DNA of 64,000 nucleotides from an uncultured Gammaproteobacteria bacterium (GCA_963714705.1 CAVQPJ010000005.1:192291-256290), one strand, 5' to 3'; positions 14,827 to 47,805 are shown, numbered from the stretch's first letter. Notes: generated from the sequence alone by a model not told the origin. Numbers and translations are program-made.

Positions 14827-15515
14827 GACAGGCTCGAAGCGGCAGTGCTGGTGCGCCGGCGCCAGCCGGCCGCCGATGCGGATTTCTGCCGCGACCGTAC
14901 CCTGCTGCGTCACGGTCATGGGCTGCGCGGGCGGCAAGCTCGTGGACCGTACGCGCGGCGTCCAGACCGTCGACGGCGTAGTCGCCGTTCGGCACGCCGT
15001 CGATCAACGCGACGCCTTGCTCGTTCGTCCGCGCGAAGTGCGGAGTGTCGACGACGACGATGTAGCCGAGCATGCCGTCGTGAATGTTGCAGCCGAGCAC
15101 GACGATGCCGGGCCGGTCGAACACGACTGGCGGATAGACGTTGCCTTTGTAGAGCGGCGAGCTCGAAGGTCTTCGTCTCCGAGAACGAGTAGACGTGATG
15201 GCTCACGTCGTCGCCGTTCGGGAACGTGACCAACGGTGCCGGACTGCACGACGAGCAGTGCGGCGCGAACTGCAGTTGTGCTGGTCCATGACGGCCGGCG
15301 CCGCTGCGTGCGCAACGGCCGTGTCCGCGCGCCGTGCTCGCCGGCGCCGTGCGAGGGCATCGCGTAGACGGCGACGTTGCTCGATCGGCCTTGCCTTGCT
15401 CGTCGACGACCGACACCTCGAGCGTCGCCGCTGCACGAAGTCGCGGCGGCTGCGAGCGCGACGAGCAGCGCGCTCGTTCGCAACCGGCGGAGCTGACGAG
15501 GACCGTCGTGCGCAT
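14811..15515 (-). CDS. Cupredoxin-fold 'methylamine utilization protein'-like protein (frameshifted)
   Basis: MDQ, FPNGDDVSHHVYSFS, LGCNIHDGM (His...Cys-x2-His-x2-Met type-1 copper ligands). Confidence 0.82.
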
Positions 15516-15575
15516 GCGATGCGTCGCAATGAAGAAGAGGAGTCCGGATGTTAGTGTCGACGGTCGAGCCGCAAC

Positions 15576-15591
15576 CGTGACCGACCGCACA
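15576..15591. promoter_or_regulatory. CRP/Clp-like box in the divergent intergenic region
   Basis: CGTGA-CCGACC-GCACA, 8/10 match to TGTGA-N6-TCACA. Confidence 0.4.
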
Positions 15592-15626
15592 CAACCCTTT
15601 GCTTCGCTCCGTAGTATCGCAACTGC

Positions 15627-18013
15627 ATGAAACAGTACGGCTTTCGTCACAGAATTCTGCTGCTCGCCGTCGCGCTCGTCGTCGCGACGCAGCTCGATCA
15701 TGCTGTTCCCGGTCTTCGACCTCATCAAACGCGACTCGGCCGCGCAGGCCGAGCGCACGGTCGGCCTCGCCGGCGTGCTGTTCGACGAGTACATGCACAA
15801 TCGCGCCGAGCAGCTGCTGACGACCGTCAACGTCCTCGTCTCGGACTATCCGTTCAAGCAGGCCGTCGCGAGCAGCGACGACGAAGCGACGATTCGCTCC
15901 GTGCTGCGCAACCACGCGAGCCGTGTCGGCGCGCCGCGTCGCGGCGCTGCTCGACCTCGACGGCGCGGTCACGGTCAGCTCGACCGCCGACGAGCGTCCG
16001 GTGCCGGGCTTCCCGAGCGTGCCGTTCAGCTCACTCGACGGACAGGCGCGCGCCATCGCGTCGTCGTCATCGGCGGCGTGCCGTACCAGACCGTGACCGT
16101 GCCGTTGCGCGCACCCGATACGGTCGCTTGGGTCATGCTCGGCTTTCCGATCGACGACGTGGTCGCTCGGCGACACTCGAGAGTCTCACGGGCCTCGACG
16201 TGTCGTTCATCTCACGTGCAAGGCGTGACGCCGCGCGTGCTTGAGCTCGACGCTGCCGAGAGCACGCGAGAGCGAATGCGCTTGCCGGCCTCGACGCGTA
16301 GCCGCACCGAGCCGCAACGCACCGGCGTCGGCACCGACACGCACGTCTCGTTGCTGCGGCCGTTCGCGCGCCGACAACAACGACGTCTACGTCGCGATGC
16401 AGCTCTCGCAAGACGATGGCGATGGCCTCGTACCGCCGCGTCCGCAACTTCCTGTACGCGATCACGGGCTTCTCGCTGCTGCTCGCGATCAGCGGCTCGT
16501 TCTGGCTCGCGAAGACCGTGACGCGGCCCGTGCAGGATCTCGCGGACGCGGCGCGCCGCATGCGCGAAGGCGTCTACAACGAGCCGATCAACATCCGCAC
16601 CGCCGACGATTTCGGCGAGCTCGCCGGCAGCTTCAACGCGATGCAAGAAGCGATCGCGGACCGCGAGCGGCGCATCTTCCACCAGGCGCATCACGACAGC
16701 TTGTCCGGACTGCCGAACCGCGAGCTCGTCGTCGGCCTGCTCCGCGATGCCATCGAGCGGCAACGCAAAGCTCGCGGTCGTGAGCCTGGGGCTCGACCGA
16801 TTCAACGGCATCGTATCGTCGCTCGGCCACCGCGCCGGCGACGAGGTCGTCAAGCTCGCGGCCGCGACGCTGCGCGCACGCCTCGGCGAGAACCGACGTG
16901 CTCGGCCACCTGAGCGGCCACGAGTTCGTCGTCGGATTGCCGGGACGCGACGCACGCGAAGCCGATCGAGTGGATCGAGCTCCAGGCCGACGCGCTGCGC
17001 GCCGGCGTGCGCGTCTCGAACGCCAACATCTCGCTGCAAGTGACGGGCGGCGTCGCCTGCTACCCCGAGCACAGCCAGGACGCGGCCGAGCTCTGCCGAC
17101 GCGCGTCGAGCGCGCGCAGCGAGGCGCTCGCGCGCCACGAGACGGCGGCCGTGTATCGCCTCGGGCAGGACGACCGCTCGTTGCAGCAGATTCGGATCGT
17201 CGGCGACTTTCCGCGGCGCGTTGCACGACGGCGATCTACGGCTGTACTTCCAACCGAAGCTCGACCTCTCGACGGGCGAGATCTACGGCGCCGAGGCGCT
17301 CGTGCGCTGGCAGCATCCCGAGCTCGGGCTGCTGATGCCCGGACGCCTTCATCGCCGCCGATCGAGCAAGCCGGCAGCATCGCGCACCTGACGCGCTGGG
17401 TGCTGCGCGAGGCCGTCGCCCGCTGCGCGACGTGGCGCAATCAAGGCGTCATGCTCGGCATCGCCGTCAACATCTCGGTCGACGACCTGACCGACGAGTA
17501 CCTGCCCTACTTCCTGCTCGAGCTCGATGCAGAAGCACAAGCTCGCGCCGCACACGCTGACGCTCGAGGTCACCGAGAGCGCGATCATGCACAACGTGCA
17601 GAAGTCGCTCGCCGTCGTGAACTGCATCCACGAGCTCGGCTTCCGTCTCTCGATCGACGACTTCGGCACGGGCCATTCGGCGCTCTGCGCAGTTGAAGCG
17701 CCTACCGGTCGACGAGCTCAAGATCGACAAGTCGTTCGTCACGCGCAACGACGACGCGAAGGACGACGCGATCTTGCGCGCGACGATCGATCTCGCCCAC
17801 CAGCTCGGGCTCACCGTCGTCGCCGAAGGCGTCGAGGACGACGCCGCGATCGCGCGACTCGCGGCACTCGGCTGCGAGCACGCGCAGGGCTACGGCATCG
17901 GCAAGCCGATTCCGCAGGAGCAGTTCCTGGCCTGGCTCTCGCAGCGTCGCAGCGCGGGCCGCGCGAGCGTCGTGCCGCTGACCGGCGGGCGCGCGGACGG
18001 CCGCGGCAGCTAG
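15627..18013 (+). CDS. Membrane sensor-HAMP-GGDEF(degenerate)-EAL phosphodiesterase (frameshifted)
   Basis: Two TM segments, HAMP (DDFGELAGSFNAM), HDSLSGLPNR, SGHEF in place of GGDEF, GAEALVRW, IDDFGTG, LKIDKSF, AEGVE. Confidence 0.9.
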
Positions 18014-18871
18014 GCACGGCCTGAGCGACGTCGGGCGTCGGGCGGCCACGCTCCGCGAACTCGCGGTGCACCGCGAGCTCCGCGCTCGACCTCGTCGCGT
18101 CGCGCGAGCTCGGCGGGCTTGACGCCCGACTCGACCGCCGCGACGCGCACGCGTGCGCGCCGTCGACCGTGAAGCACAGCGCGCCAATCCTTGATGCACA
18201 GCGTGAAGCCCGTCGCTCGCGCGCGGATACGCCGGTACGGGTGCGGCTCCGGCCCGAGCGCGAGCGTCGGCCGTCGCACGCTCGCGCAGCGGCAAGCCCC
18301 GTGCGCGCTCGATCCACTCGGCCTGCTCGGCTGCAAGCGGCGTCCCAGACGCACCTCGAACGCCGGGATCGGATCGCGCGGCGCGTCGCCGCACTCCGCG
18401 AGCCAGCCGCTCCCTGCGTCGGCGATCGCGTCCGTGTAGGCGACGTACGGCTTGATGTCGAGCACCGGCGTGCCGTCGAGCATGTCGACGTCGCTGACGT
18501 GCAGCGTCAGGCCGTCGACGCGCTCGAGCCGCACGGCCGACAGCCCGAGCGGGTTCGGCCGATGCGGCGAGCGCGTCGCGAACACGCCCTTGCGGCCGGA
18601 GCGGCTGCGCGGCGGCAGCACCTTCGGCCGCCAGCCGTCGTTGCGGTCGAACCAGAACAGCACCCAGATGTATTGCCATCCGTCGAGGTCGGCAGAGCGC
18701 GTGCTCGAAGTTGCGGCCGGGCAGGAGCTCGATGCGGCGCCGGCGACGCCCACGCGCGCGCGCGGCTGGCGCGCGGCTTCGACTTTCGTCGCGAGCGCCG
18801 CAGCGCACGTAGCCGATCGGCTCGAGCGTGAGCTGTTTCGCCGGCTCGGGGCGTCGCTGCGGATCCGTCAT
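18010..18871 (-). CDS. trmO: tRNA (t6A37) N6-methyltransferase TrmO (frameshifted)
   Basis: GVFATRSPHRPNPLGLS and DMLDGTPVLDIKPY. Confidence 0.9.
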
Positions 18872-19098
18872 TCGGCTACCTCGGAAAGTCGCCCCGGGGA
18901 CTTTACACGACGGTCGGGCAGCGAGCGCCGCCCTCTCGGCCGAGGTAGGTGGGTTGCCCGGTGTTGCCGGTGATGGTGTGGCTGGAAAGGGGCCCCGCCG
19001 TGACACATTCCCGGACCTCAAACTGAGCGACGCATCACTCGGCCCGCCGGCTCGATCCCCTATGCTCCTAAGCTTACTTGCGACAGCTCGTGTGAGTA

Positions 19099-20886
19099 AT
19101 GACGGACCGTTACGCACGCATCCAGGGTATCCCGGCGATCGAAACGGATCGCGACGGCGAGCTCGGTAGCGTTGGCAGGAGCCTGTTGCCACCGCGCGAC
19201 GCTTCGGCGGCCCAGCCGCCGAGTCAGATGGCCGGTTATCGGACCGTGCTCATGCTCGTTGCGTCTCCCGACGGCACCGTCTCCGGTGTGCTGCCCGGGG
19301 AAGGACCATCGGCCGGCGGGCTCGATGCCAATGCCGCACCGAAGTCGCTGGCGGAGCTGTGGCCCGCGGACGTCTGCGCGCAAATCGGCGAATGCATGCG
19401 ACGGTGCCTACGCGGCCGCTGCCTCGAGAGCATGGCTCTCGAGATCGTCGAGCCGGCCGACCGGCTCAAGCTCATCTGCGTGCCTCATGGCCGCGACAGC
19501 GCGCTCATCGTCGTGCTCGACGTCGGCGCGCCCGCGAACGCCTACTCGCGCATGCTCGATCTCGCGTACGTCGATCGGGCCACGACGCTGCCGACGCGCG
19601 AGTACTTCTTGGAGGAGCTCGAGCGCTTCACCGATATCTCACGACTGAAAGAGCAGCGCGCTGCGGTCATCTGCTTCAGCATCGAGCAAAGCGAAGGGCA
19701 CGCCAACGCGTTCAGCGGACAACGCCAGGACCTCGTGCTCAAGGAGCTCGCCGCGCGGCTCGTGCTTTCGCTGCGGGGCGTGAACAAGCGCAGCGAGCCC
19801 GATCACGAGCGCTACTCGGTCGCGGCTCGCATCGACTACCGCCAGTACGGCGTGCTGCTGCCGAGCATCGGCAGCGGCGCCGACGCCGAGAGCGTGACCG
19901 TGCGCCTGATTGAGGCTCTGCAGCAGCCCGTACCGCTCGGCAACCGCCAAGTGGCAGTGACCGTGCGCGCGGGCATCGCGTTATTCCCACAAGACGGCGC
20001 CGACGCCGAGACGCTGTTCGAAAACGCACTCGCCGCCATGGAAGACGCGCGCAGCAGCCAAACCGACAGCTACAAGTTCCACTCGGGCACGCTGAAGCTG
20101 CGCGCGTTGCAGCGCAACGAGCTCGAGCTGGAGCTCAAGACCGCACTCGACCGCGAGCAGTTCAGTCTCGACTACCTCCCGATCGTGGACGCTAAGACGG
20201 GTGGCGTGGCGAGTGTCGAAGCCCTGCTGCGTTGGCCGCAGGCCGCATTCGGCACGCAGCGCACGCAGAAGGTCCTCGCGCTCGCAGAGCACACGGGCCT
20301 CATCGTGCCGATCGGCGAATGGGTCATGACGCAAGGCATCGGCGATCTCAAGCGGTGGCATCAGGCGGGGCACACGAGGCTCAGACTGGCGATCAACCTC
20401 TCGATGCAGCAGTTCTCGCGGCCCGACCTACCGCAGCGCCTCGCCGCGATGCTGGCGGCGCAAGGCGTCGATGCCGGCTGCATCGACGTCGAGATAACCG
20501 AATACATGCTGTTCCGGGACGCGCTCGCGGGCCACGCCGCGGCCCGTGCGCTGCGTGACGTCGGCGTCGGCGTCGTCGTCGACGATTTCGGCACGGGCGC
20601 GTGCTCGATCGCCCATCTCTCGCGGAGCCCCATCACGGCCGTCAAAATCGACAACAGCTTCGTTGCCAACGTGGCTAGCCAGGGCGCCGACCGGGCGACG
20701 TGCGCCGCAATGATCGCGCTCACCCACGAGCTCGGCCGCACGGTCAGCGCCGAGGGCGTCGAGACGCCTGCACAGGCGCAGGTGCTGCGCGAGCAGGGTT
20801 GCGATTTTCTCCAGGGATTCCTGATCTCAAAGCCGGCGCCCGCGCCGGAGATCGGCGCGTTCCTGGCGTCGCGGAGCAAGGGTTGA
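19099..20886 (+). CDS. GGDEF(degenerate)-EAL protein, probable c-di-GMP phosphodiesterase
   Basis: GGDEF replaced by DYRQY; VEALLRW, EITE, DDFGTG, KID, AEGVET, QGF intact. Start uncertain. Confidence 0.88.
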   Translation: MTDRYARIQGIPAIETDRDGELGSVGRSLLPPRDASAAQPPSQMAGYRTVLMLVASPDGTVSGVLPGEGPSAGGLDANAAPKSLAELWPADVCAQIGECMRRCLRGRCLESMALEIVEPADRLKLICVPHGRDSALIVVLDVGAPANAYSRMLDLAYVDRATTLPTREYFLEELERFTDISRLKEQRAAVICFSIEQSEGHANAFSGQRQDLVLKELAARLVLSLRGVNKRSEPDHERYSVAARIDYRQYGVLLPSIGSGADAESVTVRLIEALQQPVPLGNRQVAVTVRAGIALFPQDGADAETLFENALAAMEDARSSQTDSYKFHSGTLKLRALQRNELELELKTALDREQFSLDYLPIVDAKTGGVASVEALLRWPQAAFGTQRTQKVLALAEHTGLIVPIGEWVMTQGIGDLKRWHQAGHTRLRLAINLSMQQFSRPDLPQRLAAMLAAQGVDAGCIDVEITEYMLFRDALAGHAAARALRDVGVGVVVDDFGTGACSIAHLSRSPITAVKIDNSFVANVASQGADRATCAAMIALTHELGRTVSAEGVETPAQAQVLREQGCDFLQGFLISKPAPAPEIGAFLASRSKG

Positions 20887-20890
20887 AGCC

Positions 20891-22783
20891 GTGAAGGATG
20901 CTTCTCAACGCCCCGACGCCCGAGCGCCGCACGAGTCGACGGCGATGACGGGCAGGCTCAAAGCCTTGTCGACAGACGCGTCGATGACCGAGCCACGCGA
21001 GCAAGCTCCGGACACCCGCACGGCGCTGCTCATTTGCACGGACGGCGCGGCCGCAAAATGGGGGCCCCGATGGCTCCTTCAGAGCGGCCTCGACGCGCAT
21101 GTCTGTAGCGATCCCGAGGCCGCGCTCGCGACCGCCCGGACGATGTGCCCCGATGTGCTCATCGTCGACGCCTCGTTGCACGACCGCGGGCACCGTTCGC
21201 TGCTGATCGCACTTCGGCTCGATCCCGAGCTCGACGCGCCGATCATCGCCCTGTGCGGGAACGCTCGGGATCTCGCCGCGGCGCTCGACGCGAATGTGTT
21301 CGACGTAGTGCGCAAGCCCTACGAGTGGCGTGTAGTCGCGCTACGCGCGCTTCACGCGGTCACGATCCGCCGGCTCGAAACCGAGCTGTCCCGGGCTCGC
21401 GAGTCTTTGGCCGGCGCGCTCGGTGTCGCAGACGAAGCACGGCGGCAGCTCAGGAGCCGCGAGTCGTTCGAGCCGCTGACAGGTTTGCCGAACCGCAAGA
21501 AGTTCGGCGAGCTGCTCAAGCGCACCCTCGCCCCCGCGAGTAGCGACGGGAAGAAGCTCGCGGTATTCGTAATCGGGTTCAACCGCTTCGGACTCGTCGT
21601 CGAAGCAATGGGGCAGGAGCGCGCCGACCTCGTGCTGACCGAGATCGGCCGGACGCTCGACCAGTGTCTCGTCGACCTGAGCTCGGCTCAAGCCGAAACG
21701 GCCGGCCTCCGCACGGCTGCAGCCGCGTGCATCGACCATGCGCGTTTCGCGCTGATGCTGACGTACTCGGGCGCCGACGACGAGCTGTCGGCACTCCAGC
21801 ACCGGATCGTAGAGCGGCTCTCGCAGCCCGTGCGGATCGCGGGCCAGACGGTCTTTCTGTCTGCTTGCGTCGGCGTTGCGATCCACCCGCAAGACGCACC
21901 CGACGCCGACACCCTGATGCAGCGGGCCGACAATGCCATGCGCGACGCGCAAAGCCGCGGCGGCGGGTTCCGTTTCTACAGCGCCGCGACCGATGCCGCC
22001 GCCGCGCGCAAGCTCAAGCTCGAGCACATGCTGCACGAGGCACTCGAGACGGGCGCGCTCACGCTCGCCTATCAACCGATTGTCGACACCGCGCGGCGGC
22101 GGACGACGAGCGCCGAGGTGCTCCTGCGCTGGCCCCAGGCCGATGGCGCGTCGATCGCGCCGGCGGAGTTCGTGCCGATCGCGGAGGAATCCGGGCTCAT
22201 GGACCGCATCGGCGAACACGTGCTCGAGCATGCGTGCCGGCAACTCGCATCGTCGCGTGCCGCCGGGCACAGTCTCTCGCGCATCTGCGTCAATGTGTCG
22301 CGAGCGCAGCTCATGGGCCCGAACCTCGCGGCCGCCGTTGCGCGGTGCCTGCACGAGCATGGGCTCGACCCGGCCTCGCTCGAGCTCGAGCTCAGCGAAC
22401 GCGGCGTGCTGTGCGGCGACCAGGACGTCATCCGCCAGCTCGAAGGGCTCAAGCGTCTCGGCGTCAGGCTGTCGCTCGACGATTTCGGCACCGGCGAGTC
22501 CGCGATCATCTATCTGCGCGAGCTCCCGATCGACGTCATCAAGATCGACCAGTCCTATGTCCAAGCCGTCAACGACAACGGCCGGGATGCCGCGATCGTC
22601 TCGGCGATCGTCGCGCTCGGCCGGCAAATGGGCCTCAAAGTCGTGGCCGAGGGCGTCGAAACAGCGGACCAGCTCGCGACGATCGAGCGGCTCGGCTGCG
22701 ACGAATATCAAGGCTTCCTCGTCTCGCAGCCGCTCGGGTCGCAGGACTTCGCGGCATTCCTCGATCGCGAGCAGGGGCGCTGA
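20891..22783 (+). CDS. REC-GGDEF(degenerate)-EAL protein
   Basis: REC domain (PDVLIVD...VVRKP), PLTGLPNR, DHARF at the GGDEF position, EVLLRW, DDFGTG, KID, AEGVET. 4 nt from the upstream gene. Confidence 0.9.
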   Translation: MKDASQRPDARAPHESTAMTGRLKALSTDASMTEPREQAPDTRTALLICTDGAAAKWGPRWLLQSGLDAHVCSDPEAALATARTMCPDVLIVDASLHDRGHRSLLIALRLDPELDAPIIALCGNARDLAAALDANVFDVVRKPYEWRVVALRALHAVTIRRLETELSRARESLAGALGVADEARRQLRSRESFEPLTGLPNRKKFGELLKRTLAPASSDGKKLAVFVIGFNRFGLVVEAMGQERADLVLTEIGRTLDQCLVDLSSAQAETAGLRTAAAACIDHARFALMLTYSGADDELSALQHRIVERLSQPVRIAGQTVFLSACVGVAIHPQDAPDADTLMQRADNAMRDAQSRGGGFRFYSAATDAAAARKLKLEHMLHEALETGALTLAYQPIVDTARRRTTSAEVLLRWPQADGASIAPAEFVPIAEESGLMDRIGEHVLEHACRQLASSRAAGHSLSRICVNVSRAQLMGPNLAAAVARCLHEHGLDPASLELELSERGVLCGDQDVIRQLEGLKRLGVRLSLDDFGTGESAIIYLRELPIDVIKIDQSYVQAVNDNGRDAAIVSAIVALGRQMGLKVVAEGVETADQLATIERLGCDEYQGFLVSQPLGSQDFAAFLDREQGR

Positions 22784-22841
22784 ACCCCTTCTTGACCGGC
22801 CCTCCTGATACCTAGACAGCCCGATTTGACCGGGCCCGTTA

Positions 22842-22857
22842 TTTGAACTCCGTCACA
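22842..22857. promoter_or_regulatory. CRP/Clp-like binding box upstream of the diguanylate cyclase
   Basis: TTTGA-ACTCCG-TCACA, 9/10 match to TGTGA-N6-TCACA, about 115 nt upstream of ATG 22972. Confidence 0.55.
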
Positions 22858-22971
22858 GTTCTCCGCTGAGCCGCCCGGCGGTCGGGCAGCGCGCAGAGTG
22901 CTCGTTCCCCGTAGTTTGTGCCCCGTGGATCTTCAGGCCTCGACGGCCGCTAAGAGACCAGGGACGGGCGT

Positions 22972-25900
22972 ATGACTACCACTGAACGCAAACGAGCTCC
23001 CACCGCTTCACGCGGTCTCGGCCGCGTGCTCATGGCCTGGGCCGCGCTGGCCGGCTCCCCAATGCTCATGCTCGCGCACGGCGCCGCCGCGCAAGACCAT
23101 CATCCGATGCGCTTCGGTCGTCTCGAGATCGAGGACGGGTTGTCGCAGAGCCACGTGCTCGCGATCTGGCAGGACTCGACCGGGCACATGTGGTTCGGCA
23201 CGGAGAACGGTCTCGACAGCTACGACGGTTATGAGTTTCGCCACTACCGCCACGAGCGCGGCAACGCCGAGACGCTTGGCAGCGACTACATCTACGACAT
23301 CGCCGAGGACGCCGACGGCAATCTTTGGATAGCGACGAACGGCGGCGGTCTCGCGCGCGTGGAACGCGGAACGCAGCGCATCCGTTCTTACCGCCACGAT
23401 CCCGCGGACGGCGACAGCATCGGCAGCGACATCGTCCGGAGCTTGGTTCTGGATGCGGACGGCACGATCTGGGCCGGAACGCGCGGCGCGGGGCTCGACC
23501 ACTTCGATCCGAAGACCGGCCGCGCCTCGCACTTCCGTTTCGACGGCACCGGCGAAACCGCCAACGAAATTCACGTGTTGTACGAGGACTCGGCCGGGCT
23601 GCTCTGGATCGGCAGCGACCACGGCCTGACTCGCTTCTCGAGAGAGACGGGCGAAGCCACCAACTTCTCGCACGACGCCAACGATCCCGCATCGCTCAGC
23701 GACGCGCGCGTCAGGTCCATCTTCGAAGACAGTCGCGGGCGTATTTGGGTCGGCACGTACGGCGGCGGCCTCAACCGGTTCGATCGGGAGCGCGGCACGT
23801 TCGAGCGTTTCCGGAACGATCCTTCAGTCGCCTCGTCGCTCGCGAGCGATCGAGTCACGGCGATTTTCGAGGACCAGGACGGCCGGCTCTGGGTCGGCAC
23901 GACCGCCGGCCTGAACCTGTTCGACGAGTCGAACCGCAATTTCGCGCGCTATAGCCACGACGCCGCCGACGCCACGAGCCTCGGCGACGACTCCGTGACG
24001 GCGCTTTTCCAGGACCGCGGCGGCCTGCTCTGGGTTGGCACGCAGAACCGCGGCGTCAGCAAGTGGAACCCGCGCACGTGGGCCTATGGGCTCGATGACG
24101 CGCGCGAGCTCGCCGCCGACCGGGCTACCGCGCCGAACGTGACCTCGTTCCTCGAGGACGGCGCCGGGACACTCTGGGTTGGCACGTTCGGCGACGGCTT
24201 GAGCGCGCTCGACCGCGCGGCGGGCACGACGCGCGTCTTCCGCCACGATCCGCAGGACGCGGCAACTTTGAGCGACGACCGCGTCATGAGCTTGCTCGAG
24301 GACGACCTGGGTCGCGTCTGGGTCGGCACGATGACGGGCGGCATCAACGTCATCGATCCGTCGACCGGCGCGATCGAACACCTGCGCCACGACCCGAACA
24401 ATGCGTCCAGCGTCGGTGGCGACGGCATCATGGCGATGCTCGAGGACAGCAATGGCTTCGTCTGGGTCGGCACGTTCGGCGCCGGCGTCAGCCGCTTCGA
24501 TCCGCGCACCGGCGCGTTTCGCCGCTTCGCCGCAAACGACTCCGGCCGCGGCCCGAGCAGCGACCGCGTGACGAGCTTCGCCGAGGACGTGACGGGCCGC
24601 ATCTGGATCGGCACCGACGGCGGCGGCCTCAATCTGCTCGACCCGCGGACCGAGCAGTTCCACTATCTGCGGCACGACCCGGCCGACGCGGATACGCTCG
24701 CGGCCGACACCGTCTACGCGATCAACATCGATCCGACCGGCACGGTTTGGGTGGGCACGCGCGGCGGCGGACTCGACCGCGTCGTCGGCGGCGCTCTGGA
24801 TCCCGAGCGCATCCGCTTCGAGAATCTCTCGGAGGCCGACGGTCTCCCCAACGACGTCGTCTACGGCGTGGAATTCGACAACACGGGCCGCCTGTGGCTC
24901 AGCACGAACTTTGGGCTAGGCCGCTTCAACCCGCTCGACGGCTCGATCCGCAAGCTGCATCGCACGGACGGGCTGCAATCCGAAGAGTTCAACTTCGGCG
25001 CGCACTACCGCAGCCCGAGCGGCGAGCTCTTCTTCGGCGGGCACAACGGCTTCAACGCGTTTCGACCGGAGGCCCTCAAGCCGAGCGACGCGATTCCCGC
25101 GATCGCGCTTGCGGGTTACCTCGGCTCGCGCGAGCGCCTGCGGGGCGACGACGGGTCGTTCGACCTTTCGTCCGGCCTCGGCCTGTCGTACCGCGACGAT
25201 GTCGTGAGCTTCGAGGTCGCCGCGCTCGATTACGCGGCACCGCAGCACAACCGCTACATGTACAAGCTCGAGGGCCTCGACCGCGACTGGAACGACCTCG
25301 GCACCAACCGGCACATCGCGTTCACGGACCTCGATCACGGTAGCTACGTGCTGCGCGTGAAGGCTGCGAGCAGCGACGGCGTTTGGAACGACGCCGGAAT
25401 CGCGCTACCGGTGCGCGTTGCGCCGGCGCCGTGGGAGACGTGGTGGGCGTACCTCGGCTATGTCGCCACGGCGGTCTTCATCGCAACTGCGCTGTACTTC
25501 GGTCATCGCCGCAAGATCCAACGCGAAGAGGAATACAGCCAGCGGCTCGAGATCGAGGTCCGTCAGCGCACGGAGAAGCTCATCGAGACCAATGACAGGC
25601 TCCATGAAGCCAATCGCGCGCTGCAAGAAAGCAGCTTGAGCGACCCGCTGACGGGACTCCGAAACCGCCGTTTCGTCCTCGAGGAAGTCTCGCGCGACCT
25701 CGACGTCATTCGGCGGCGGCTCGAGGACGAGGCCGGCGGCGTCGATCCGCGCAACGTCGCCGCGCTCACGTTCATGATGATCGACCTCGACCACTTCAAG
25801 CCGATCAACGACACCTACGGTCACGCGGCCGGCGACCGCATGCTGCTCGAGGTCCGCGACGTGTTGCTGAAGACGTGCCGTCGATCGGACTTCGTGATTC

Positions 25901-26382
25901 GCTGGGGTGGCGACGAGTTCGTCGTCATCGCGAAGCAGGCCAAGCCCGGCGAATCCGAGGCGCTCGCCGAGCGTATTCGCCGTGACATCGCCAATCACCA
26001 GTTCAAGGTCGGCGACGGCCAGATCGTGCGCACCACGTGCTCGATCGGCTTCGCGGCTTACCCGCTGTTCAAATCGCGGTCCGACGAAACGAACCTCGAC
26101 CAAATCATCAATCTCGCTGACAACCTCATGTACGAGTCGAAGAAAAAGCGCAACGCGTGGGCGGGCATGCTGAGCCCCTCGTCCGTCGCGACGAGCGCAA
26201 ACATCGACATCGATTCGCTCGACCCGACCTCGGTGCTGTTCCGCGCCCACCGCGCGGGTGCGGCCAAGCGCAGGACCGATGAGGCCGAAGAGAGCACGAA
26301 GGCCGCGGTGCGGGAAATGAAGCCTGTGCGCGCGGTCACGGTCGAAGATGTGGCGAGTGTTCTGCAAGCGAGAGTTGGGTAA
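22972..26382 (+). CDS. Periplasmic beta-propeller (Reg_prop) + Y_Y_Y + TM + diguanylate cyclase
   Basis: Signal peptide, many D-x-x-G-x-[LI]-W-[VI]-G-T repeats, YMYKLEG (YYY), TM after PWETWWAY, DPLTGLRNRR, DLDHFK, RRSD I-site, intact RWGGDEF. Confidence 0.95.
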   Translation: MTTTERKRAPTASRGLGRVLMAWAALAGSPMLMLAHGAAAQDHHPMRFGRLEIEDGLSQSHVLAIWQDSTGHMWFGTENGLDSYDGYEFRHYRHERGNAETLGSDYIYDIAEDADGNLWIATNGGGLARVERGTQRIRSYRHDPADGDSIGSDIVRSLVLDADGTIWAGTRGAGLDHFDPKTGRASHFRFDGTGETANEIHVLYEDSAGLLWIGSDHGLTRFSRETGEATNFSHDANDPASLSDARVRSIFEDSRGRIWVGTYGGGLNRFDRERGTFERFRNDPSVASSLASDRVTAIFEDQDGRLWVGTTAGLNLFDESNRNFARYSHDAADATSLGDDSVTALFQDRGGLLWVGTQNRGVSKWNPRTWAYGLDDARELAADRATAPNVTSFLEDGAGTLWVGTFGDGLSALDRAAGTTRVFRHDPQDAATLSDDRVMSLLEDDLGRVWVGTMTGGINVIDPSTGAIEHLRHDPNNASSVGGDGIMAMLEDSNGFVWVGTFGAGVSRFDPRTGAFRRFAANDSGRGPSSDRVTSFAEDVTGRIWIGTDGGGLNLLDPRTEQFHYLRHDPADADTLAADTVYAINIDPTGTVWVGTRGGGLDRVVGGALDPERIRFENLSEADGLPNDVVYGVEFDNTGRLWLSTNFGLGRFNPLDGSIRKLHRTDGLQSEEFNFGAHYRSPSGELFFGGHNGFNAFRPEALKPSDAIPAIALAGYLGSRERLRGDDGSFDLSSGLGLSYRDDVVSFEVAALDYAAPQHNRYMYKLEGLDRDWNDLGTNRHIAFTDLDHGSYVLRVKAASSDGVWNDAGIALPVRVAPAPWETWWAYLGYVATAVFIATALYFGHRRKIQREEEYSQRLEIEVRQRTEKLIETNDRLHEANRALQESSLSDPLTGLRNRRFVLEEVSRDLDVIRRRLEDEAGGVDPRNVAALTFMMIDLDHFKPINDTYGHAAGDRMLLEVRDVLLKTCRRSDFVIRWGGDEFVVIAKQAKPGESEALAERIRRDIANHQFKVGDGQIVRTTCSIGFAAYPLFKSRSDETNLDQIINLADNLMYESKKKRNAWAGMLSPSSVATSANIDIDSLDPTSVLFRAHRAGAAKRRTDEAEESTKAAVREMKPVRAVTVEDVASVLQARVG

Positions 26383-26386
26383 TTTC

Positions 26387-28325
26387 ATGAAAAGAACTAC
26401 ACCTTTGTTCCTGGCGGCCGTCGCGCTGACGGGCGTGGCCGGGTTCATCGCACTCAACTCCGCAACGCGCTCGGGCGGCGCGGCAGCGCGCGGCGGGGCA
26501 ACGGTTGCCGTCGGCGCCGAGGCGCCGCTCGCCACAGGCACAACCACCGTCGGCGGCGCGCGCGCGCGCGCGACCGAAACCGCGGGCGACGTACCGAATC
26601 GCGGCGCCGAGGTCGCGGCGTCCGTTCCCGAGTCGAATGCAGCTACAGCTACAGCTCCGGAATCCACGTCGCGCGCGCCGAGCGTCGCCGCAAGACGCAG
26701 CGCGGCGCCCGCCGCGCGTGCAGTCCCCGCGGCGGCCGAAGCGAAGATGAGCGCAGCCGTCGTCGCGTTCGCCGCGGCCGGCGGGTCGGAGCCCGTCGAG
26801 CTCATCGTGCGCTACGACGAGCACCCGGAGCTCTTCGACGACCAACGCATCGCGGCGCTCGGCGGCACGGTTGCACGTGTCTACAACGTGCTCGACATGC
26901 GTGCGATCCGCCTTCCCGCCGAGACGCTCATCGAGCTCGCGCTCGAGGACAACGTCGACCGCCTCTCGCTCGACGAGGGAGTCAGCGCCTCGTTCGTCGC
27001 GGCGCGCGCGACCGCGAATCTGCCGGTGGCCACGTCGGCGAACGCCGCGTTCCACGGTGCGGGCGTCGGCATCGCCGTGCTCGACTCGGGCATCGCGCCC
27101 CACGCCGACTTGCCGGGCCAGGTGCGGCAATACAACTTCCTCCACGGCAACGTGCCGTATCCCACCGTCGTCGACGGCGAGATCACGGCTTACAACGACG
27201 AGCCGCGATCGGACTTGTACGGGCACGGCACGCACGTCGCCGCGATCATCGCCGGCCAAGGAGCCGCTTCGAACGGTGAGTATCGTGGCGCGGCGAACGG
27301 CGTCTCGCTGCTGTCGCTGCGCGTGCTCGACGAGCATGGCAACGGCCAGATGTCCGACGTCATGGCGGCACTCGACTGGCTGCTCGTCTACGGCGATTAC
27401 TTCGACGTGCGCGTCGCGAACCTCTCGCTCGGAAAGCCGATCTCCGAGTCGAACACCACGGATCCGCTCGTGGCTGCCGTCGAGGCGCTGTGGGACAGCG
27501 GCGTCGTCACCGTCATCGCTGCCGGCAACCTCGGCGCCCGCGGCAACGGGACGGTCAAGAGCCCCGGCAACTCGCGCAAGGTCATCACGGTCGGCTCGCT
27601 GACCGACTGGAATACGGCCGACTTCGCGGATGACATCGTCTCGTCGTTCTCGTCGCGCGGGCCGACGGCCGGCGACTTGGTGCTGAAGCCCGACCTCGTG
27701 GCGCCCGGCAACCGCATCGTGTCAGCCATCCCGACGGGCTCGCAGCTCGTCGCGGAGCTCCCGACTCGGCTCGTCGCGTGCACGAGCCTGCCCTGCAACA
27801 CTCACTATCTCTCGATGTCGGGCACGAGCATGGCCACGCCGCTGGTCGCGGCAACGGCCGCGCTCATGCTCGACAAGGACCCATCGCTGAGCCCGGCGAC
27901 CGTCAAGGCGCGGCTCATGCAATCCGCGCGCAAGATCGCGGTGAACGCCGCGACCGCCGGCGCCGGCGTGCTCGACGTCGACGCGGCGCTCGGCGCGACG
28001 GGCACCGTCGCGGGCGAGGCCCTCTCGCCGCTGCTGACGATAAGCGACACGGGCCGAATCGCGATCGAGAACACGGCCACGTTGTGGGGCAGCGACCTGT
28101 GGGCCGCAGGCTACGTGTGGGCCGACGGCTACCTCTGGGCCGACGGCTCGGGCTCGGTTGCGGCGGATGGGTATCTTTGGGCCGACGGTTACCTCTGGGC
28201 GCGACGGTTACCTCTGGGCCGACGGTTACCTCTGGGCCGACGGTTACCTCTGGGCCGACGGTTACCTCTGGGCCGACGGTTACTTGTGGGCCGACTCGGT
28301 CGGGGCTCTCCGCGACGACGAGTGA
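26387..28325 (+). CDS. Secreted S8 (subtilisin/AprX-like) serine peptidase with a Trp-repeat C-terminal tail
   Basis: Triad motifs AVLDSGI, GHGTHVA, SGTSMATP and oxyanion AAGN. Removing one extra G at 28201 gives ...(GYLWAD)n-SVGALRDDE* ending at 28325; the uncorrected ORF ends at 28342. Confidence 0.93.
28109..28295 (+). repeat. Coding 18-bp tandem repeat GGTTACCTCTGGGCCGAC (GY[LV]WAD x9)
   Basis: Two units, a GSGSVAAD spacer, then seven units. Synonymous variants (ggc/ggg/ggt, tat/tac, ctt/ctc/ttg) occur in the outer units. Confidence 0.92.
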
Positions 28326-28423
28326 ACGGCTACCTCCGGTGATCCGCGCACGACGCGCGGATCACCCTCACGCTGCGCGGTCGCGACTATCCCTCCTCCC
28401 CCGCACGCGGATACCCCGGTCGC

Positions 28424-28479
28424 GCGATTGACAAGCTGCCTGTCAAACCAGGCAACTCGACAACCGACTTGTCAATCGC
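28424..28479. promoter_or_regulatory. Tandem palindromic operator-like site
   Basis: TTGACA-N7-TGTCAA (28428-28446) and TCGACA-N7-TGTCAA (28457-28475), framed by a perfect 12-bp inverted repeat GCGATTGACAAG / CTTGTCAATCGC. Confidence 0.65.
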
Positions 28480-28594
28480 CGGAAGGCATCCCTCGTACAA
28501 CCAGCCTCGCCGGGGCTTGCGAGCATTCACGCCACGCGCGGGACGAAGTTGCCGCTAAACTGTGGCGCAGAAGCACGCGTTTCGGGGGAATCTC

Positions 28595-30319
28595 ATGGGC
28601 ATCCGCACGGTCATTCGTCGCTCCGGGCTCGGCGCCCTGTCGGCCGCCGCGCTCGCTACTTGCTGCGTACCGATCTCCGCGAACGCACAACCATCCGCGG
28701 CGTTAGCCGGCCGCGTGACGTCGGCCGCCGAAGGTGCAATGGAAGGCGTGCTCGTCAGCGCGCAAGCGCGAAGGCTCCAGCAAGACGGTCACCGTCGTGA
28801 GCCACGCCGACGGCCGCTACTCGTTCCCGAGCGGCCGGCTCGAGCCCGGCCGCTACGCCGTCTCCGTCCGCGCCGTGAAGTACGTGCTCGCGAACCGCGA
28901 CCAGCAGCGTCGAGATCGCGGCTGGCAAGGCGGTGCAACTCGATCTCGCGCTAAACGAGTCGAACCCGCTCGAGCTCGCGTTGCAGATGACGGATCCCGA
29001 ATGGTTCGCGAGCTATCCGCTCGACGACCGCACCAAGTGGGAACTCTTCCGCGACTGCAGCCGCTGCCACACGCTGCGCCGGCCGTCGATGTCGACCTAC
29101 GACTCCGAGGAGCTCGCCTACGTCATGCAGCGCATGGTCTATTCGGCGGGTAGCTCGCCGATGCGTTACCAGCTTCCCGCCGGCGCGACGCCGCATTGGG
29201 GCCGCGCCGAAGGCGGCGAGCCGTCGGCGCTGCAACGCCGTCAGGCCGAGGCCGTCGCGTCGATCAACCTGCACAACGGCATGTGGAGCTACGAGCTGAA
29301 GACCGTGCCGCGGCCCAAGGGCAAAGAGACCGAGGTCGTCTACACGACCTGGGATCTGCCGGCGACGGCCCGGCCGCACGACACGCGCATCGCGGCCGAC
29401 GGCACGATCTTCTTCAACCACTTCAACGACAACGCGATCGGCCGGCTCGACCCGAAAACCGGCGACGTCAAGGAGTGGCGCTGGCCGTACCGCGCCGAGG
29501 TAGGCTCGTTCCAGCCGACGGGCGCGCGCACGTTGATGGGCCCCGACGAGCAAGGCCGCTGGTACATCGGCAATCAGGCGCAGAGCGGCGTCGTCGTGTT
29601 CGATCCGAAGACCGAGCAATTCGAGTTCCACGATCCGCCCGGCGGCGGCGAGATGATCGACGTCTCGGGCGCACACGTCGACGGCAACGCGTGGCGCGCC
29701 GTCGCGGGCCCCGTCGCGGGCGGCGGCGTCTATCAGATCGACCTCGACGACGTGGGAGCACGACGAGATCAAGGGCACGAACGAGAAGCCGCTCTACGCG
29801 TACGACATCGCGGCCGACTCGCGCAACAACGTCTACGGCAGCGCGCGCAACGCGCCGTACGTCTGGCGCATCGACGCGAAGACGCACGAGATTCAGTACT
29901 TCGACATTCCGGCCGAGCCGCGCGGTGCCGGCTCGTTCGGCACGGGCATGCGGCGCGGCATCACGGACTCGCAGGATCGGCTCTGGTGGGGCGGCTACGA
30001 CGGCGGCTTCATCGGCCTGCTCGACCTGCGCAAGCCCGCGGGCCAGCAAATGAAGCTCTACGCCGTGCCGTTCCCGTATTTCTTCCCGTACGACGCGCAC
30101 TACGACGAGCAGGGCTACACGTGGACCGGCGGCATCTACGCCGATCGCGTCGCGCGCATGAACGTCGAGACCGGCGAGTGGAATTTCTATCTGTTGCCGT
30201 TCGAAGCGAACATCCGCGACATCAACCTGCAGCCCGCCGCGCGCAACGGCTTGTCGGGGCTCTGGATCGGACACACGCATCAAGCGATGATCACGCTCGT
30301 CGAGCCGCTCGCGCGCTGA
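28595..30319 (+). CDS. Carboxypeptidase-regulatory-like domain + CxxCH + Vgb-like beta-propeller protein (frameshifted)
   Basis: Signal peptide, GRVTS...MEGVLVSA...TVVSHADGRYSFP, CSRCH, then RPHD and IGRLDPKTG propeller repeats. Confidence 0.8.
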
Positions 30320-30729
30320 CCATGCCCCGCATAGCCGTCGCGCGGTTGCGCATCAGCGACACGCGCACGCTCTGCGCGCGTGCGTTTTGAACCTCTCGCT
30401 ACCGATGCCGGGACTCACCGGCCGAAAACCTAGTGCGAGAAAGCAACATGCGCGCGGCCAAACTTTGGCGCGCGGTGACGCGATCTCTTCTGTCGATGTG
30501 TCCGTCGCTCCGCTTGAAGACCGTGCGCGCCGGCGATCGCAAGCGCGATCCCCTAACGTTGTCTGACCGCAACACCACGCGGCGGGCGTTATGACACACG
30601 CTCTGTTGGCGCTATTTGCGCGCGCGATTCCCTCAGCCGCGCCAAACAAGAATACAGATTCTGAATCCCTGATCAAGAGCCAAATGGGACTGGCCACGCC
30701 ATTGTTTTTTTGCCAAGGTGTCGGGACCG

Positions 30730-31459
30730 ATGAAGAAAGACTCTCGACGGATTGCGCTGAGCACGGTTCCGGCCACGAGCCCGGAGCTTCGGATTCGCCA
30801 AAAGCGCGGCCAAGTGACCTTCGACGCGTTGATCGATACGGCGTTCACGCTGCTCGGCGAAAAGGACTTCGACGAAATCTCGGTCGCCGAGCTCGCGCAG
30901 AAAGCCGGCTACTCGGTCGGCGCGTTCTACGCGCGATTTCGGAGCAAGGACGAGCTGTTCGACGCGATGGTCGCTGCAACACGTGCAGAACCGCCGCAAG
31001 ATGCGCCAGCGCCAGTTCGCGACGACGAACGACGCGACGCTGTTGCACGACCTCCTCGACGAGACCGTCCGCTACTACTGGGGCCGACGCCGTTTTTGGC
31101 GCGCGGCGTTGATTCGCAGCATTCGCGAGCCCGAGTTCTGGGCGCCGATGCGCAAGCTGAGCCACGAGTTCGCGGACGCCCTGCTGGCGCGTATTCGTGC
31201 GCGTGCCGGCCGCACTTTGACGAAGACCGAGGAAGCAAACGCTCGCTTCGCCGTTCAGCTCGCCTTCGGCCTCATCAACAACACGATCTTGAACCGCCCC
31301 GGCCCGTTCTTCCTCGAGCAGGACCTGTTCATCGACAACCTCGTGCGAGCGTTCAAGCTCGTGTCGGGCTACGATGAGCTTGGTGCTGGGCCCGCCGCTC
31401 GCGGCGCCAAGCGCCCGAAAGCCGGCACGCGCAGCCGGCCGAAACGAAGCCGCGGCTGA
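30730..31459 (+). CDS. TetR/AcrR family regulator (frameshifted)
   Basis: RQKRG...ISVAELAQKAGYSVGAFYARFRSKDEL. Confidence 0.92.
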
Positions 31460-31491
31460 GCGCTGCGGACCGGAACCGGGGGGAGGGTCCG

Positions 31492-32476
31492 TTGAGGGGT
31501 ACATTCGCGATCTTGCTTGGCGCGCTCGGCTGCGCGACGAACGTTGCCGCGGCGCAGTCGCTCGTCGACCAGCTCGCGTGGGCGTATGCGATCACGCCGG
31601 GCCCCGCGCCGGCGGCGCCCGTCGACGACGGCACGCGCCATTCGCTGCCCGGCAGCGACCGGGCAGTTCACGCTCGACCAGATCCGCAACCGCATGGGGC
31701 CCGCCGATTGGTACCCCGGCGATCATCCGAGCATGCCGCCGATCGTCGCCGTCGGCCGCGAGGCCGCCGGCGTCTGGGCCTGCTCGCTGTGCCATTACCC
31801 GAACGGCAAGGGCCGCCCCGAGAACGCGAGCGTCGTCGGCTTGCCGAAGGAGTACTTCATCCAGCAGATGTACGACTTCAAGAACGGCGCGCGCGCGAGC
31901 GCCGACGCGCGCAAGCCGAACACGCCGATCATGACCGGCTTCGCCGTGCAGATGACCGACGAGGAGATCCGCGCAGCCGCCGACTATTTCAGCTCGATGC
32001 GCTGGACGCCGTGGATCGAGGTCGTCGAGACGGACACGGTGCCGAAGACGCGCATCGCCGGCGGCATGCATTTGAAGCTCGAGGGCGCCGAGGCCGGCAC
32101 CGAGCCGCTCGGCAATCGGATCGTCGAGTCGCCCGTCGACGCCGAGCACACGGAGCTGCTGCGCGATCCGCGCTCGGGCTTCATCGCCTACGTGCCGAAA
32201 GGCTCGGTCGCGCGCGGCGAAGCGCTGGCGCGCTACGGCAACGAAGGCGTGACCGCGTGCACGGTCTGCCACGGCAACGATCTCGACGGGCTCGCGATGG
32301 TGCCGAGCTTGCGCGGCCGTAGCCCGAGCTACATCGCGCGGCAGCTCGCCGACATGAAGGAAGGCAAGCGCCGCGGCGCGTGGACGCCGCTGATGGCGCC
32401 CGTCGTCGCGAGCTTGGGCGCCGACGACATTTTGAACCTCGCGGCGTATCTGACGTCGCTCGAGCCGACGCCGTAA
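31492..32476 (+). CDS. Di-haem cytochrome c (c4/c553-like; frameshifted near the N-terminus)
   Basis: CSLCH and CTVCH, PSLRGRSPSYIARQL, distal Met candidates. Confidence 0.88.
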
Positions 32477-32484
32477 GCGGGCCG

Positions 32485-33448
32485 TCAGCGCGCCGGCGCG
32501 ATCGTCAGGCTCCGAAACTCGATCGGGCCGTGATCGCCCTGGAGCATGATCGGCCCCGGCGCGCCCTCGTCGCTGTCGAGCGCGCCGCCCGTGATGCCGG
32601 GTATTTCCTGCGCGTCGATCAGCGTCGTGCCGTTCAAGACGACGGTGACGCGCCGGCCGACGAGCTCGACGTCGAGCGTCTGCCATTCGCCGGCGGGGCG
32701 CGCCGCGTCGACGCTCGGCGCGATGAAGCCGTAGACACCGCCCATGCGCAGGGGATCGAGGGCCTTGCCCGCGTCGTCTTGAATCTGCACCTCGTAGCGC
32801 CCGCGCAGATAAATGCCGCTGTTGCTGCCCGTCGGAAACTTGAGCTCGGCATGCAAGCGGAGGTCGCGAAACGTCGTCGTTCCGTCACGAGGTCGACGCA
32901 CGGCGGTGTCGCGGTCAGCACGCCGCCCTGCATGCGCCAGCAGCCTGCGCGATCCGCGCTGCGCGGCGTCCAGCCCGTGAGATCGCGGCCGTTCGATGAG
33001 CGGCTGCGCTGCGCGCCACCTCGGCCTCGACGCCGGCGACGAGCGCCGGCGCGCGCGCCGCCGTGAACCGCACCGCCGCGCCGTCGGCCGCGAGCGTCGT
33101 GCCCTCGATGCGATCGCCGCGCACCGTGCCCTCGAAGCGCAGCGCGTCGATGTCGCGCTCGTACTGCACGGGCACGCGCAACGTGACGCGGCCGGCGGCG
33201 TAGTCGATGTCGCTGACGTAGCGCACGCTGCCGACGCGGCCGACGAACCGGCCCATGAGCTGCGTCTCGGTGCGCAGCTGCACCTCGAGCCACGACGGAT
33301 AAGGGCCGTCGGGCGCCTCGATCGTGAGGTCCCAGCGGCCGAGCAGCGCATCGGCGAAACCGGGCTGCGGCGCCTGGGCCCAACCCTGCGCCGCAGCGCA
33401 GAGCATGGCAGCCGCCGCGGCCCGCGCGTGGCGAATTCTCGGCGTCAT
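32485..33448 (-). CDS. DUF1080 (3-keto-disaccharide hydrolase-like) protein (frameshifted)
   Basis: NGRDLTGW, NSGIYLRGRYEVQI, GEWQ, GPIMLQGDHGPIEFR. Confidence 0.88.

Positions 33449-41928: not shown

Positions 41929-47805
<5,877 letters not shown>

Follow-up and report, generated by a model that had tools for sequence, protein, structure and literature searches.

The 64,000-nucleotide stretch analysed here (the window; G000:C5:192291-256290) belongs to an uncultured gammaproteobacterium, and the system in question is a cluster of four genes on its plus strand, predicted to encode two EAL phosphodiesterases, a membrane diguanylate cyclase with a periplasmic sensor and a peptidase of the S8 (subtilase) family that ends in a tail of tryptophan-containing hexapeptides. 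P0001 (19099-20886, 595 amino acids) combines a PAS-like N-terminus with a degenerate GGDEF domain and an EAL domain, and P0002 (20891-22783, 630 amino acids, GTG start) joins a REC-like N-terminus to the same two domains. P0003 (22972-26382, 1136 amino acids) has the Reg_prop/Y_Y_Y/GGDEF architecture of the putative cyclase, and P0004 (26387-28325) is the putative protease, whose literal open reading frame (ORF) runs on to 28342. Only 4 nt separate P0001 from P0002 (20887-20890) and P0003 from P0004 (26383-26386), the second gap holding if the protease starts at ATG 26387 (MKRTTPLF...) and not at the alternative in-frame ATG at 26348. With that proviso, the ORF map bears out an earlier reading of the window made from the letters alone (hereafter the sequence-only reading), which had seen four co-directional genes arranged in two pairs with 4-nt gaps.

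The two EAL proteins are recognized by Pfam through EAL matches of 7.9e-63 (212.4 bits) in P0001 and 1e-67 (228.4 bits) in P0002, together with GGDEF matches of 8.9e-14 and 4.6e-20, respectively, and the receiver-like region of P0002 scores 26.5 bits, under the 30.2-bit cut-off of Response_reg. In an alignment of the three GGDEF domains of the cluster, the GGDEF motif is replaced by DYRQY in P0001 and by DHARF in P0002, so that both lack the intact GG(D/E)EF expected of a diguanylate cyclase. The EAL motif (EVL in P0002), DDFGTG, EGVE and KID, as read by eye, are all retained, and in combination with PF00563 scores above cut-off they make both proteins candidate EAL phosphodiesterases. At other loci (loci and genomes are cited by our L and G numbers), the ortholog of P0001 in L030 has the composition PAS_4-GGDEF-EAL, and the orthologs of P0002 in L030 and L043 are REC-GGDEF-EAL proteins. 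P0003 comprises, in order, a signal or transmembrane segment, a periplasmic part formed by a double Reg_prop propeller and a Y_Y_Y domain (approximately residues 40-820), a transmembrane segment, a coiled coil and a GGDEF domain. Pfam detects Reg_prop in seven stretches (1.6e-66, 212 bits), Y_Y_Y at 1.3e-14 (54.3 bits) and GGDEF at 2.9e-36 (125.1 bits), and the motif RRSD-FVIRW-GGDEF places an RxxD I-site five residues upstream of an intact GGDEF. The PF00990 match and these two motifs point to an active diguanylate cyclase, while the PF07494 repeats, PF07495 and the solved homologs of the periplasmic part (4a2l, 6.9e-108; 3v9f, 3.5e-87; 3ott, 1.1e-49) identify a probable Reg_prop/Y_Y_Y periplasmic sensor. 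P0003 is not a hybrid two-component system, GGDEF being the only domain that Pfam places after the membrane segment. On all these points the sequence-only reading stands, for it had described EAL proteins with preserved catalytic motifs and degenerate GGDEF sites, a cyclase with intact GGDEF and RxxD motifs beneath a large periplasmic propeller and Y_Y_Y sensor, and an S8 protease following directly upon it.

P0004 matches Peptidase_S8 (PF00082) at 3e-53, with 181.4 bits against a cut-off of 21.8, and consists of an N-terminal signal or anchor, an Ala-rich linker, a propeptide-like domain, the catalytic domain, a structured extension and the Trp-hexapeptide tail. The triad residues D246, H296 and S494 and the oxyanion residue N394 are invariant in 36 aligned homologs; the PF00082 score, the order of the triad and the Asn make P0004 an S8 subtilase, and its N-terminus, read by eye, suggests that it is exported. 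The nearest solved catalytic domains (3afg, 3.2e-50; 9ues, 7.9e-50) match residues 224-532 and belong to subtilisin-like proteases, and the Trp tail has no solved counterpart. All eight listed NCBIfam models of S8 subfamilies (mycosin, IteS, QhpE, CspBA, PrtP, PatA/G) stay below cut-off for P0004, the highest score being the 137.5 bits of the type VII secretion system (T7SS) mycosin, whose cut-off is 278.75, and no model of either Pfam or NCBIfam extends over the tail. Of 8000 candidate proteins scored, 3116 matched P0004 at E <= 0.001; the best 120 are mostly 630-700 amino acids long, and those with a named source belong to Woeseiaceae or to metagenome-assembled genomes (MAGs) of Gammaproteobacteria. 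Longer S8 paralogs of 957-993 amino acids, with some 300 residues inserted within the catalytic domain and the Trp tail kept, are encoded at L042:10001-12874 and L039:9632-12613, and the insert gives weak discoidin-like or reelin-subrepeat-like matches.

The tail is encoded by an 18-nt tandem repeat (28095-28295, plus strand, 10.8 copies) that yields GYLWAD units. One extra base at about 28199-28202, where GGGCGCGAC stands in place of GGGCCGAC, takes the literal ORF out of the repeat frame, and past this break it reads RRLPLG... up to the stop at 28342. The repeat frame continues after the break as (DGYLWA)x5-DSVGALRDDE* and stops at 28325, which is the end given by the sequence-only reading; that reading was thus right about a GYLWAD repeat tail on a protease it took to be secreted, and it passed over the one-base break. 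Directly 3' of the repeat-frame stop lies a hairpin with a 12-bp stem (28338-28366, plus strand, -35.3 kcal/mol, z = -3.8) that none of 200 shuffled sequences matched in folding, and the shifted-frame stop (28340-28342) falls inside its stem. The break is most likely an assembly error, because this hairpin comes after the stop of the repeat frame and takes in that of the shifted frame, because the tail of every complete homolog stays in frame to an acidic end, and because the assembly is full of similar single-base breaks. In public sequencing runs, no listed DNA piece spans the break (the nearest ends at 28156), the contigs being 90-96% alike; the best DNA sets contained at most 0.19 of the query words, and no RNA set was listed. 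A periodic-Trp tail is present in every S8 ORF of the 80 loci described below (78 complete, two running off their contig), with a period of six in some homologs (GYLWAD, GNLWAD, GYLWSD, AALWSD, SAVWSD, NAIWGS, SVVWGS, SAMWGS and others) and of 9-11 in others (KGYGWTDGGxxA), and homolog tails terminate in LNDD or GE(N/Q/K).

The main result of the comparative analysis is that this protease family is linked, in a conserved manner, to membrane cyclic di-GMP (c-di-GMP) sensors of three architectures. We define the module as an S8 protease with periodic Trp in its C-terminal tail whose gene lies no more than 10 kb from that of a sensor, either Reg_prop/Y_Y_Y or MASE9, with an output through c-di-GMP or a kinase; at the studied locus, the protease lies 4 nt behind its sensor and has 11 Trp in its tail, both frames counted. 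The sample consists of the loci of the best 80 of 590 confirmed relatives, with domains mapped by tblastn within 10 kb of the protease. Any c-di-GMP domain (GGDEF, EAL or HD-GYP) occurs at 48 of these loci, with HD-GYP at 37, GGDEF at 37 and EAL at seven, and a sensor of either type at 59 (Reg_prop or Y_Y_Y at 12, a MASE9-like membrane domain at 47). A control on 40 of the 80 loci, from 39 genomes, with a density of 2.5 GGDEF per Mb, shows GGDEF at 24 loci against 2.09 expected. The sequence-only reading had named missing linkage between such proteases and c-di-GMP genes as the outcome that would overturn it, and these counts go the other way. The best 120 S8 matches and the best 120 cyclase matches also have 16 identical longest-contig values in common; in all, homologs of the sensor number more than 7000.

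The identity of the partner varies. According to Pfam, all seven partners sampled from Acidobacteriota or Armatimonadota are HD_5-GAF-GGDEF proteins, four of them with MASE9 matches (two above cut-off), and the partners in L059 and L099 are Reg_prop-Y_Y_Y hybrid histidine kinases, followed in L099 by a GGDEF-EAL gene. Every version of the module includes predicted enzymes for both the synthesis and the breakdown of c-di-GMP, be it through a cyclase plus EAL proteins, a kinase plus a REC-GGDEF-EAL protein, or HD-GYP and GGDEF on a single chain. Many acidobacterial loci have a stand-alone membrane protein of 250 amino acids directly after the protease, and the one in L103 shares 35% identity (9e-43) with the MASE9 portion of the fused enzyme encoded at the same locus. 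Gene order varies as well: L030 and L032 show EAL-EAL-(Reg_prop/Y_Y_Y/GGDEF)-S8, as does L033 with one EAL detected; the S8 gene precedes the cyclase, with ORFs overlapping or abutting, in L037 (Vicinamibacteria) and L042 (Steroidobacteraceae); and in the acidobacterial L043 (22-12148) three Trp-tailed S8 genes surround one Reg_prop/Y_Y_Y cyclase and a REC-GGDEF-EAL gene. In L037, from a Vicinamibacteria MAG, the S8-cyclase pair is immediately preceded by a gene for a GGDEF-GAF-sigma-54 activator of the AAA+ type (L037:7003-9867), which is possibly the transcriptional arm of the module there.

A census of 151 genomes of the same order, with an S8 threshold of 1e-80, gives a similar picture. 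At this threshold, 44 S8 matches are spread over 23 genomes, each of which has a Reg_prop sensor match too, as opposed to 19 of the 128 genomes without S8 (G039 was counted only among the 42 genomes with a sensor match). In 15 of these 23 genomes the distance between protease and sensor is 10 kb or less, where chance would give 0.37; 18 of the 44 S8 matches have an adjacent sensor, and 10 of the 11 best sensor matches an adjacent S8 gene. The exact order EAL-EAL-cyclase-S8 was found in eight of ten further loci from five families of the order (L113-L117 and L119-L121), two of them with a second S8; in the other two, S8 copies flank the cyclase on both sides (L118) or the protease lies on the other strand, 5.5 kb away (L122). 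The order thus recurs in at least 11 other loci, and the P0004-type cassette is a widespread, conserved layout which is not peculiar to this window.

The same genome contains a second such locus outside the window (L026, G000:C5:54000-72000), in which genes for a CHAT-TPR protein, a ShlB-type transporter, a TPS-domain (exo)protein, a Trp-tailed S8 protease, a Reg_prop/Y_Y_Y...receiver sensor and a REC-GGDEF-EAL protein follow one another on one strand. Its protease is a paralog with GYTWS units, 44% identical to P0004 in the catalytic part; its sensor, which has kinase and receiver parts, is encoded by a gene broken by frame errors, and its REC-GGDEF-EAL gene has an intact GGDEF. An equivalent S8-sensor pair, with an intact Reg_prop/Y_Y_Y protein of 1131 amino acids, is found in G015, of the same genus. 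A tree built with FastTree from the catalytic domains of 108 S8 proteases separates a group with Reg_prop partners (Gammaproteobacteria, some Acidobacteriota and paralogs) from a group with MASE9 partners (Terriglobia, Bryobacterales and Armatimonadota). Over the whole tree the type of partner switches 19 times, where shuffled labels give about 43 switches. Exceptions occur both ways, with Reg_prop partners inside the MASE9 group (L059, L099 and L100) and MASE9-like partners inside the Reg_prop group (L041 and L055), and the link to some membrane sensor therefore outlives a change of sensor type.

Within the genus of the source genome, the four genes are a unit of gain or loss. In a DNA search of positions 15000-33000 against 24 relatives, the flanks (q1-3887 and q13550-15495 in search coordinates) are found on one contig and 20-201 bp apart in G013, G005, G008 and G011, and the intervening 9.6 kb is unmatched as a block in all 15 same-genus genomes. 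Left homology ends after GACTTTAC (18899-18906) and right homology restarts at CGCTAAACTG (28553), so that the junctions fall near 18906/18907 and 28552/28553; the genes on either side, as identified from the G013 orthologs, are a TrmO-like gene and one with a CarboxypepD_reg domain. The block (18907-28552) is thus an insertion of about 9.6 kb relative to the same-genus genomes, a point absent from the sequence-only reading, and P0004 has no match at E <= 1e-60 in 22 genomes of the genus, where a more distant paralog exists. A search for signs of mobility at the block revealed no integrase, tRNA or terminal inverted repeats, and no clear target duplication, GACTTTAC and GAAGTTGC being identical at 5/8 positions. 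In a soil-metagenome contig of a relative, the match starts exactly at the left edge of the block (18900) after 37 unmatched letters, which hints that the cassette sits there in another context. Outside the block, a HAMP-GGDEF-EAL gene (15627-17983, plus strand) lies just upstream, split into several frames here and intact with 790 amino acids in G013, and a TetR-family regulator gene (TetR_N 2.6e-14; 30718-31377, plus strand) lies downstream in the conserved flank.

Candidate regulatory signals are few. A terminator-like hairpin with a T-run lies on the plus strand between the EAL pair and the cyclase-protease pair (22819-22835); it is a consensus match only, and the region has three such sites, fewer than the 5.6 that shuffled sequences would have. 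A search of 18700-28700 yielded no sigma-70-like promoter and one of 10000-36000 no tRNA, and an Rfam search of 17500-30000 at E <= 1 returned two sub-threshold microRNA matches and no riboswitch.

The source genome assembly (5.07 Mb in 16 contigs, approximately 68% G+C) has an estimated completeness of only 58%, which fits the abundance of single-base frame breaks. By comparison with G013 orthologs, 27 breaks were counted in 23.3 kb and 16 genes across the window, taking the higher-identity row for each place from 26 rows and dropping ten overlapping alternative-frame rows. Frame-broken places include 10691-11715, 28595-30316 and 41941-47805, and a single gene of 1917 amino acids has seven breaks. 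The three breaks inspected are single-base insertions in a G/C-rich, non-homopolymer context, like that of the tail. Pfam gave almost nothing on the long flanking ORFs because the assembly is frame-shifted, and the intact G013 orthologs were used instead. The four-gene block has one break in 9.2 kb against about 10.7 expected (Poisson 2.7e-4).

The recurrence of the pairing supports well the view that the protease and the c-di-GMP genes are functionally coupled, and it suggests that the protease supplies the input of the sensor. In the scheme that we put forward, two cytoplasmic EAL phosphodiesterases with PAS-like and REC-like inputs would act opposite an inner-membrane diguanylate cyclase whose periplasmic Reg_prop/Y_Y_Y sensor reads some extracytoplasmic state. 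A Sec-exported S8 subtilase, catalytically competent to judge by its motifs, would be made beside that cyclase from a gene that is putatively coupled to it in translation and probably co-transcribed with it. Through its activity or its tail, the protease would set the state of the periplasmic domain and with it the rate of c-di-GMP synthesis, and the EAL enzymes would then pull the level of c-di-GMP down. Both a direct action of the protease on the outer side of the sensor and the direction of signalling, with the protease as input, are parts of this scheme that we infer. We lean, if only slightly, towards regarding the block as one copy of a conserved cassette in which the protease serves as a dedicated extracytoplasmic partner that sets cyclase output, with the EAL proteins lowering c-di-GMP. 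The sequence-only reading had likewise treated protease and c-di-GMP genes as one system. This core of it is borne out, since homologous Trp-tailed proteases are strongly and repeatedly associated with genes for GGDEF, EAL and HD-GYP domains and with sensors of the Reg_prop or MASE9 type; a mechanism in which GYLWAD peptides from the tail would be the ligand of the propeller is conjectural.

The input role is preferred because the conserved module contains no c-di-GMP effector through which to signal to an exported enzyme, and because a bare MASE9-like membrane protein often lies directly behind the protease. Several points weigh against it. The direction is not fixed by sequence, as a co-regulated output protease would be expected to give the same neighbourhoods, and the export or anchoring of the protease is a tentative assignment made by eye from its N-terminus. 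At 21 of the 80 loci, some of them cut by contig ends, neither sensor type is found within 10 kb, and in G032 and G092 there are 5-7 S8 copies, some in tandem and several far from any Reg_prop sensor. The enrichment figures ignore the relatedness of the genomes, and many acidobacterial loci share synteny. Finally, the solved relatives of the periplasmic domain presumably bind glycans, not peptides. For such sensor domains, a glycan ligand class is cited as speculation in the available part of PMC6182147.

A competing explanation is that the tail is an anchor or binding module for the membrane interface, a glycan or an exopolysaccharide, by which the protease is kept at the cell surface or in the matrix, that the sensor reads a glycan or matrix fragment and that the protease is a co-regulated matrix-remodelling output or a helper. 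The homology of the periplasmic domain to the Bacteroides hybrid-sensor domains (4a2l in particular) speaks for it, as do the weak matches to a discoidin-like (F5/8 type C) insert in the S8 domain of some paralogs, and matrix production is classically governed by c-di-GMP. For the tail, the nearest ESM Atlas clusters are unnamed fragments with Hexapep and Peptidase_S8 on a minority of members; Hexapep reaches 16-23% of members in some of these clusters, which we take as a lead only. This explanation must contend with a conserved cassette that is devoid of c-di-GMP effectors and transcription factors, so that an output role needs an unseen link, and with the MASE9-like protein directly after S8 in many acidobacterial loci, which suggests contact at the membrane more than simple co-regulation. 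Neither of two AlphaFold2 runs gave a confident fold for the repeats: the full-length L030 homolog (mean predicted local distance difference test, pLDDT, of 74.7) was modelled with confidence in its propeptide-like domain, catalytic domain and short extension and fell below 50 in the repeats, and the L042 tail alone had a mean pLDDT of 52.8, with repeats near 40. On balance we find this explanation doubtful.

The same low pLDDT can be read in favour of a specific form of the preferred scheme, in which signal peptides are stored in tandem in the tail, much as the tandem precursor of yeast alpha-factor is cut by the S8 protease Kex2. The subtilase, be it the tail's own or a neighbouring copy, would cut after each Trp, and the hexapeptides would be read by Reg_prop/Y_Y_Y or, in Acidobacteriota, by MASE9. 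Repeat units are near-identical within a protein and differ between species, and their conserved pattern of two hydrophobic residues, Trp, a small residue and a polar or acidic one might fit the P1-P1' site of a subtilase. Peptides rich in Trp partition into membranes. For MASE9, intramembrane binding of its ligand has been proposed (bioRxiv 10.1101/2021.11.05.467447). On the other hand, low pLDDT is no proof of disorder when the alignments have 22-43 rows, the 9-11-residue periods and variable spacers of many relatives would suit a fold equally well, and the solved relatives of the propeller bind glycans. When the propeller (residues 40-830) and the tail (residues 550-618) were co-folded, from alignments of 50 and 36 rows, respectively, the score was 0.00 in two runs made without controls, which weighs neither for nor against the idea. 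We consider such a peptide store unlikely, and no more likely the further idea that self-cut, identical hexapeptides form an extracellular, possibly species-specific cue in diderms, sensed outside the cytoplasm by Reg_prop/Y_Y_Y or MASE9 and converted into c-di-GMP. Chance adjacency or hitch-hiking in c-di-GMP-rich genomes, for which one may invoke their 3-33 GGDEF matches per genome and the further HAMP-GGDEF-EAL gene just upstream of the block, is highly improbable in view of the excess of GGDEF at the control loci and of adjacent pairs in the census, and of a link that recurs in several gene orders, three sensor architectures and several phyla.

More generally, the signals of most membrane-bound c-di-GMP enzymes are unknown, and they are stated to be so for Reg_prop/Y_Y_Y enzymes in the available parts of PMC6182147 and PMC6637768 and for MASE9 in that of bioRxiv 10.1101/2021.11.05.467447. 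The protease family is a concrete candidate for such an input: it follows its sensors through three architectures and at least three phyla, its genes often appear to be translationally coupled to those of their partners, and genomic context thus offers a function for a family of more than 3000 members, common in sediment and soil Gammaproteobacteria and in Acidobacteriota. If the coupling is true, a protease-dependent input route would be added to c-di-GMP signalling, and if the tail were indeed an array of peptides, this would name the ligand class of two widespread sensor domains. Full-text searches of the literature brought up no publication that treats either the Trp tail or a link between subtilases and c-di-GMP; this agrees with the sequence-only reading, which knew of no characterised system with this layout, although the layout itself proves to be widespread.

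Several known systems provide points of comparison. Among them are LchP of Lysobacter enzymogenes and GdpX2 and GdpX3 of Xanthomonas oryzae, Reg_prop-Y_Y_Y c-di-GMP enzymes of Gammaproteobacteria in which, as in P0003, this sensor type is fused to c-di-GMP domains; LchP differs in its PAS-PAS-GGDEF-EAL output, and the available parts of PMC6182147 and PMC6637768 mention no linked protease for any of the three. MASE9-HD-GYP-GAF-GGDEF proteins, with which this S8 family is paired in Acidobacteriota and Armatimonadota and which are absent from the window, are described with no ligand given and no mention of proteases in the available part of the work of Galperin and Chou (bioRxiv 10.1101/2021.11.05.467447). 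Among structures, the Bacteroides hybrid two-component sensors (4a2l/4a2m, 3v9f and 3ott/3va6) have a homologous double propeller with Y_Y_Y and differ from P0003 in output, which is kinase, receiver and DNA-binding in them and GGDEF here. Their ligands we take to be glycan fragments, and we know of no protease partner for them. LapD-LapG, a functional analogy, also has a protease in the periplasm that is tied to c-di-GMP through an inner-membrane protein, but LapG is a cysteine protease and LapD a degenerate GGDEF-EAL receptor that works inside-out, whereas the window encodes a putative subtilase and an apparently intact cyclase; the NCBIfam LapD model scores 31 bits here against a cut-off of 1020. 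YfiBNR (TpbB/DgcN), another functional analogy, similarly has an inner-membrane GGDEF protein with periplasmic input and an adjacently encoded periplasmic partner, but that partner is a small repressor, whereas here it would be an S8 protease with a Trp tail and the sensor is of the Reg_prop/Y_Y_Y type; P0003 is not a member of the DgcN/YfiN family by the NCBIfam model (117.3 bits against a cut-off of 325). We place the system described here in a known class, that of membrane c-di-GMP enzymes whose periplasmic partner is encoded in the same operon; what it adds is the cassette of a Reg_prop cyclase with a Trp-tailed S8 protease and the enrichment of c-di-GMP genes around that protease family.

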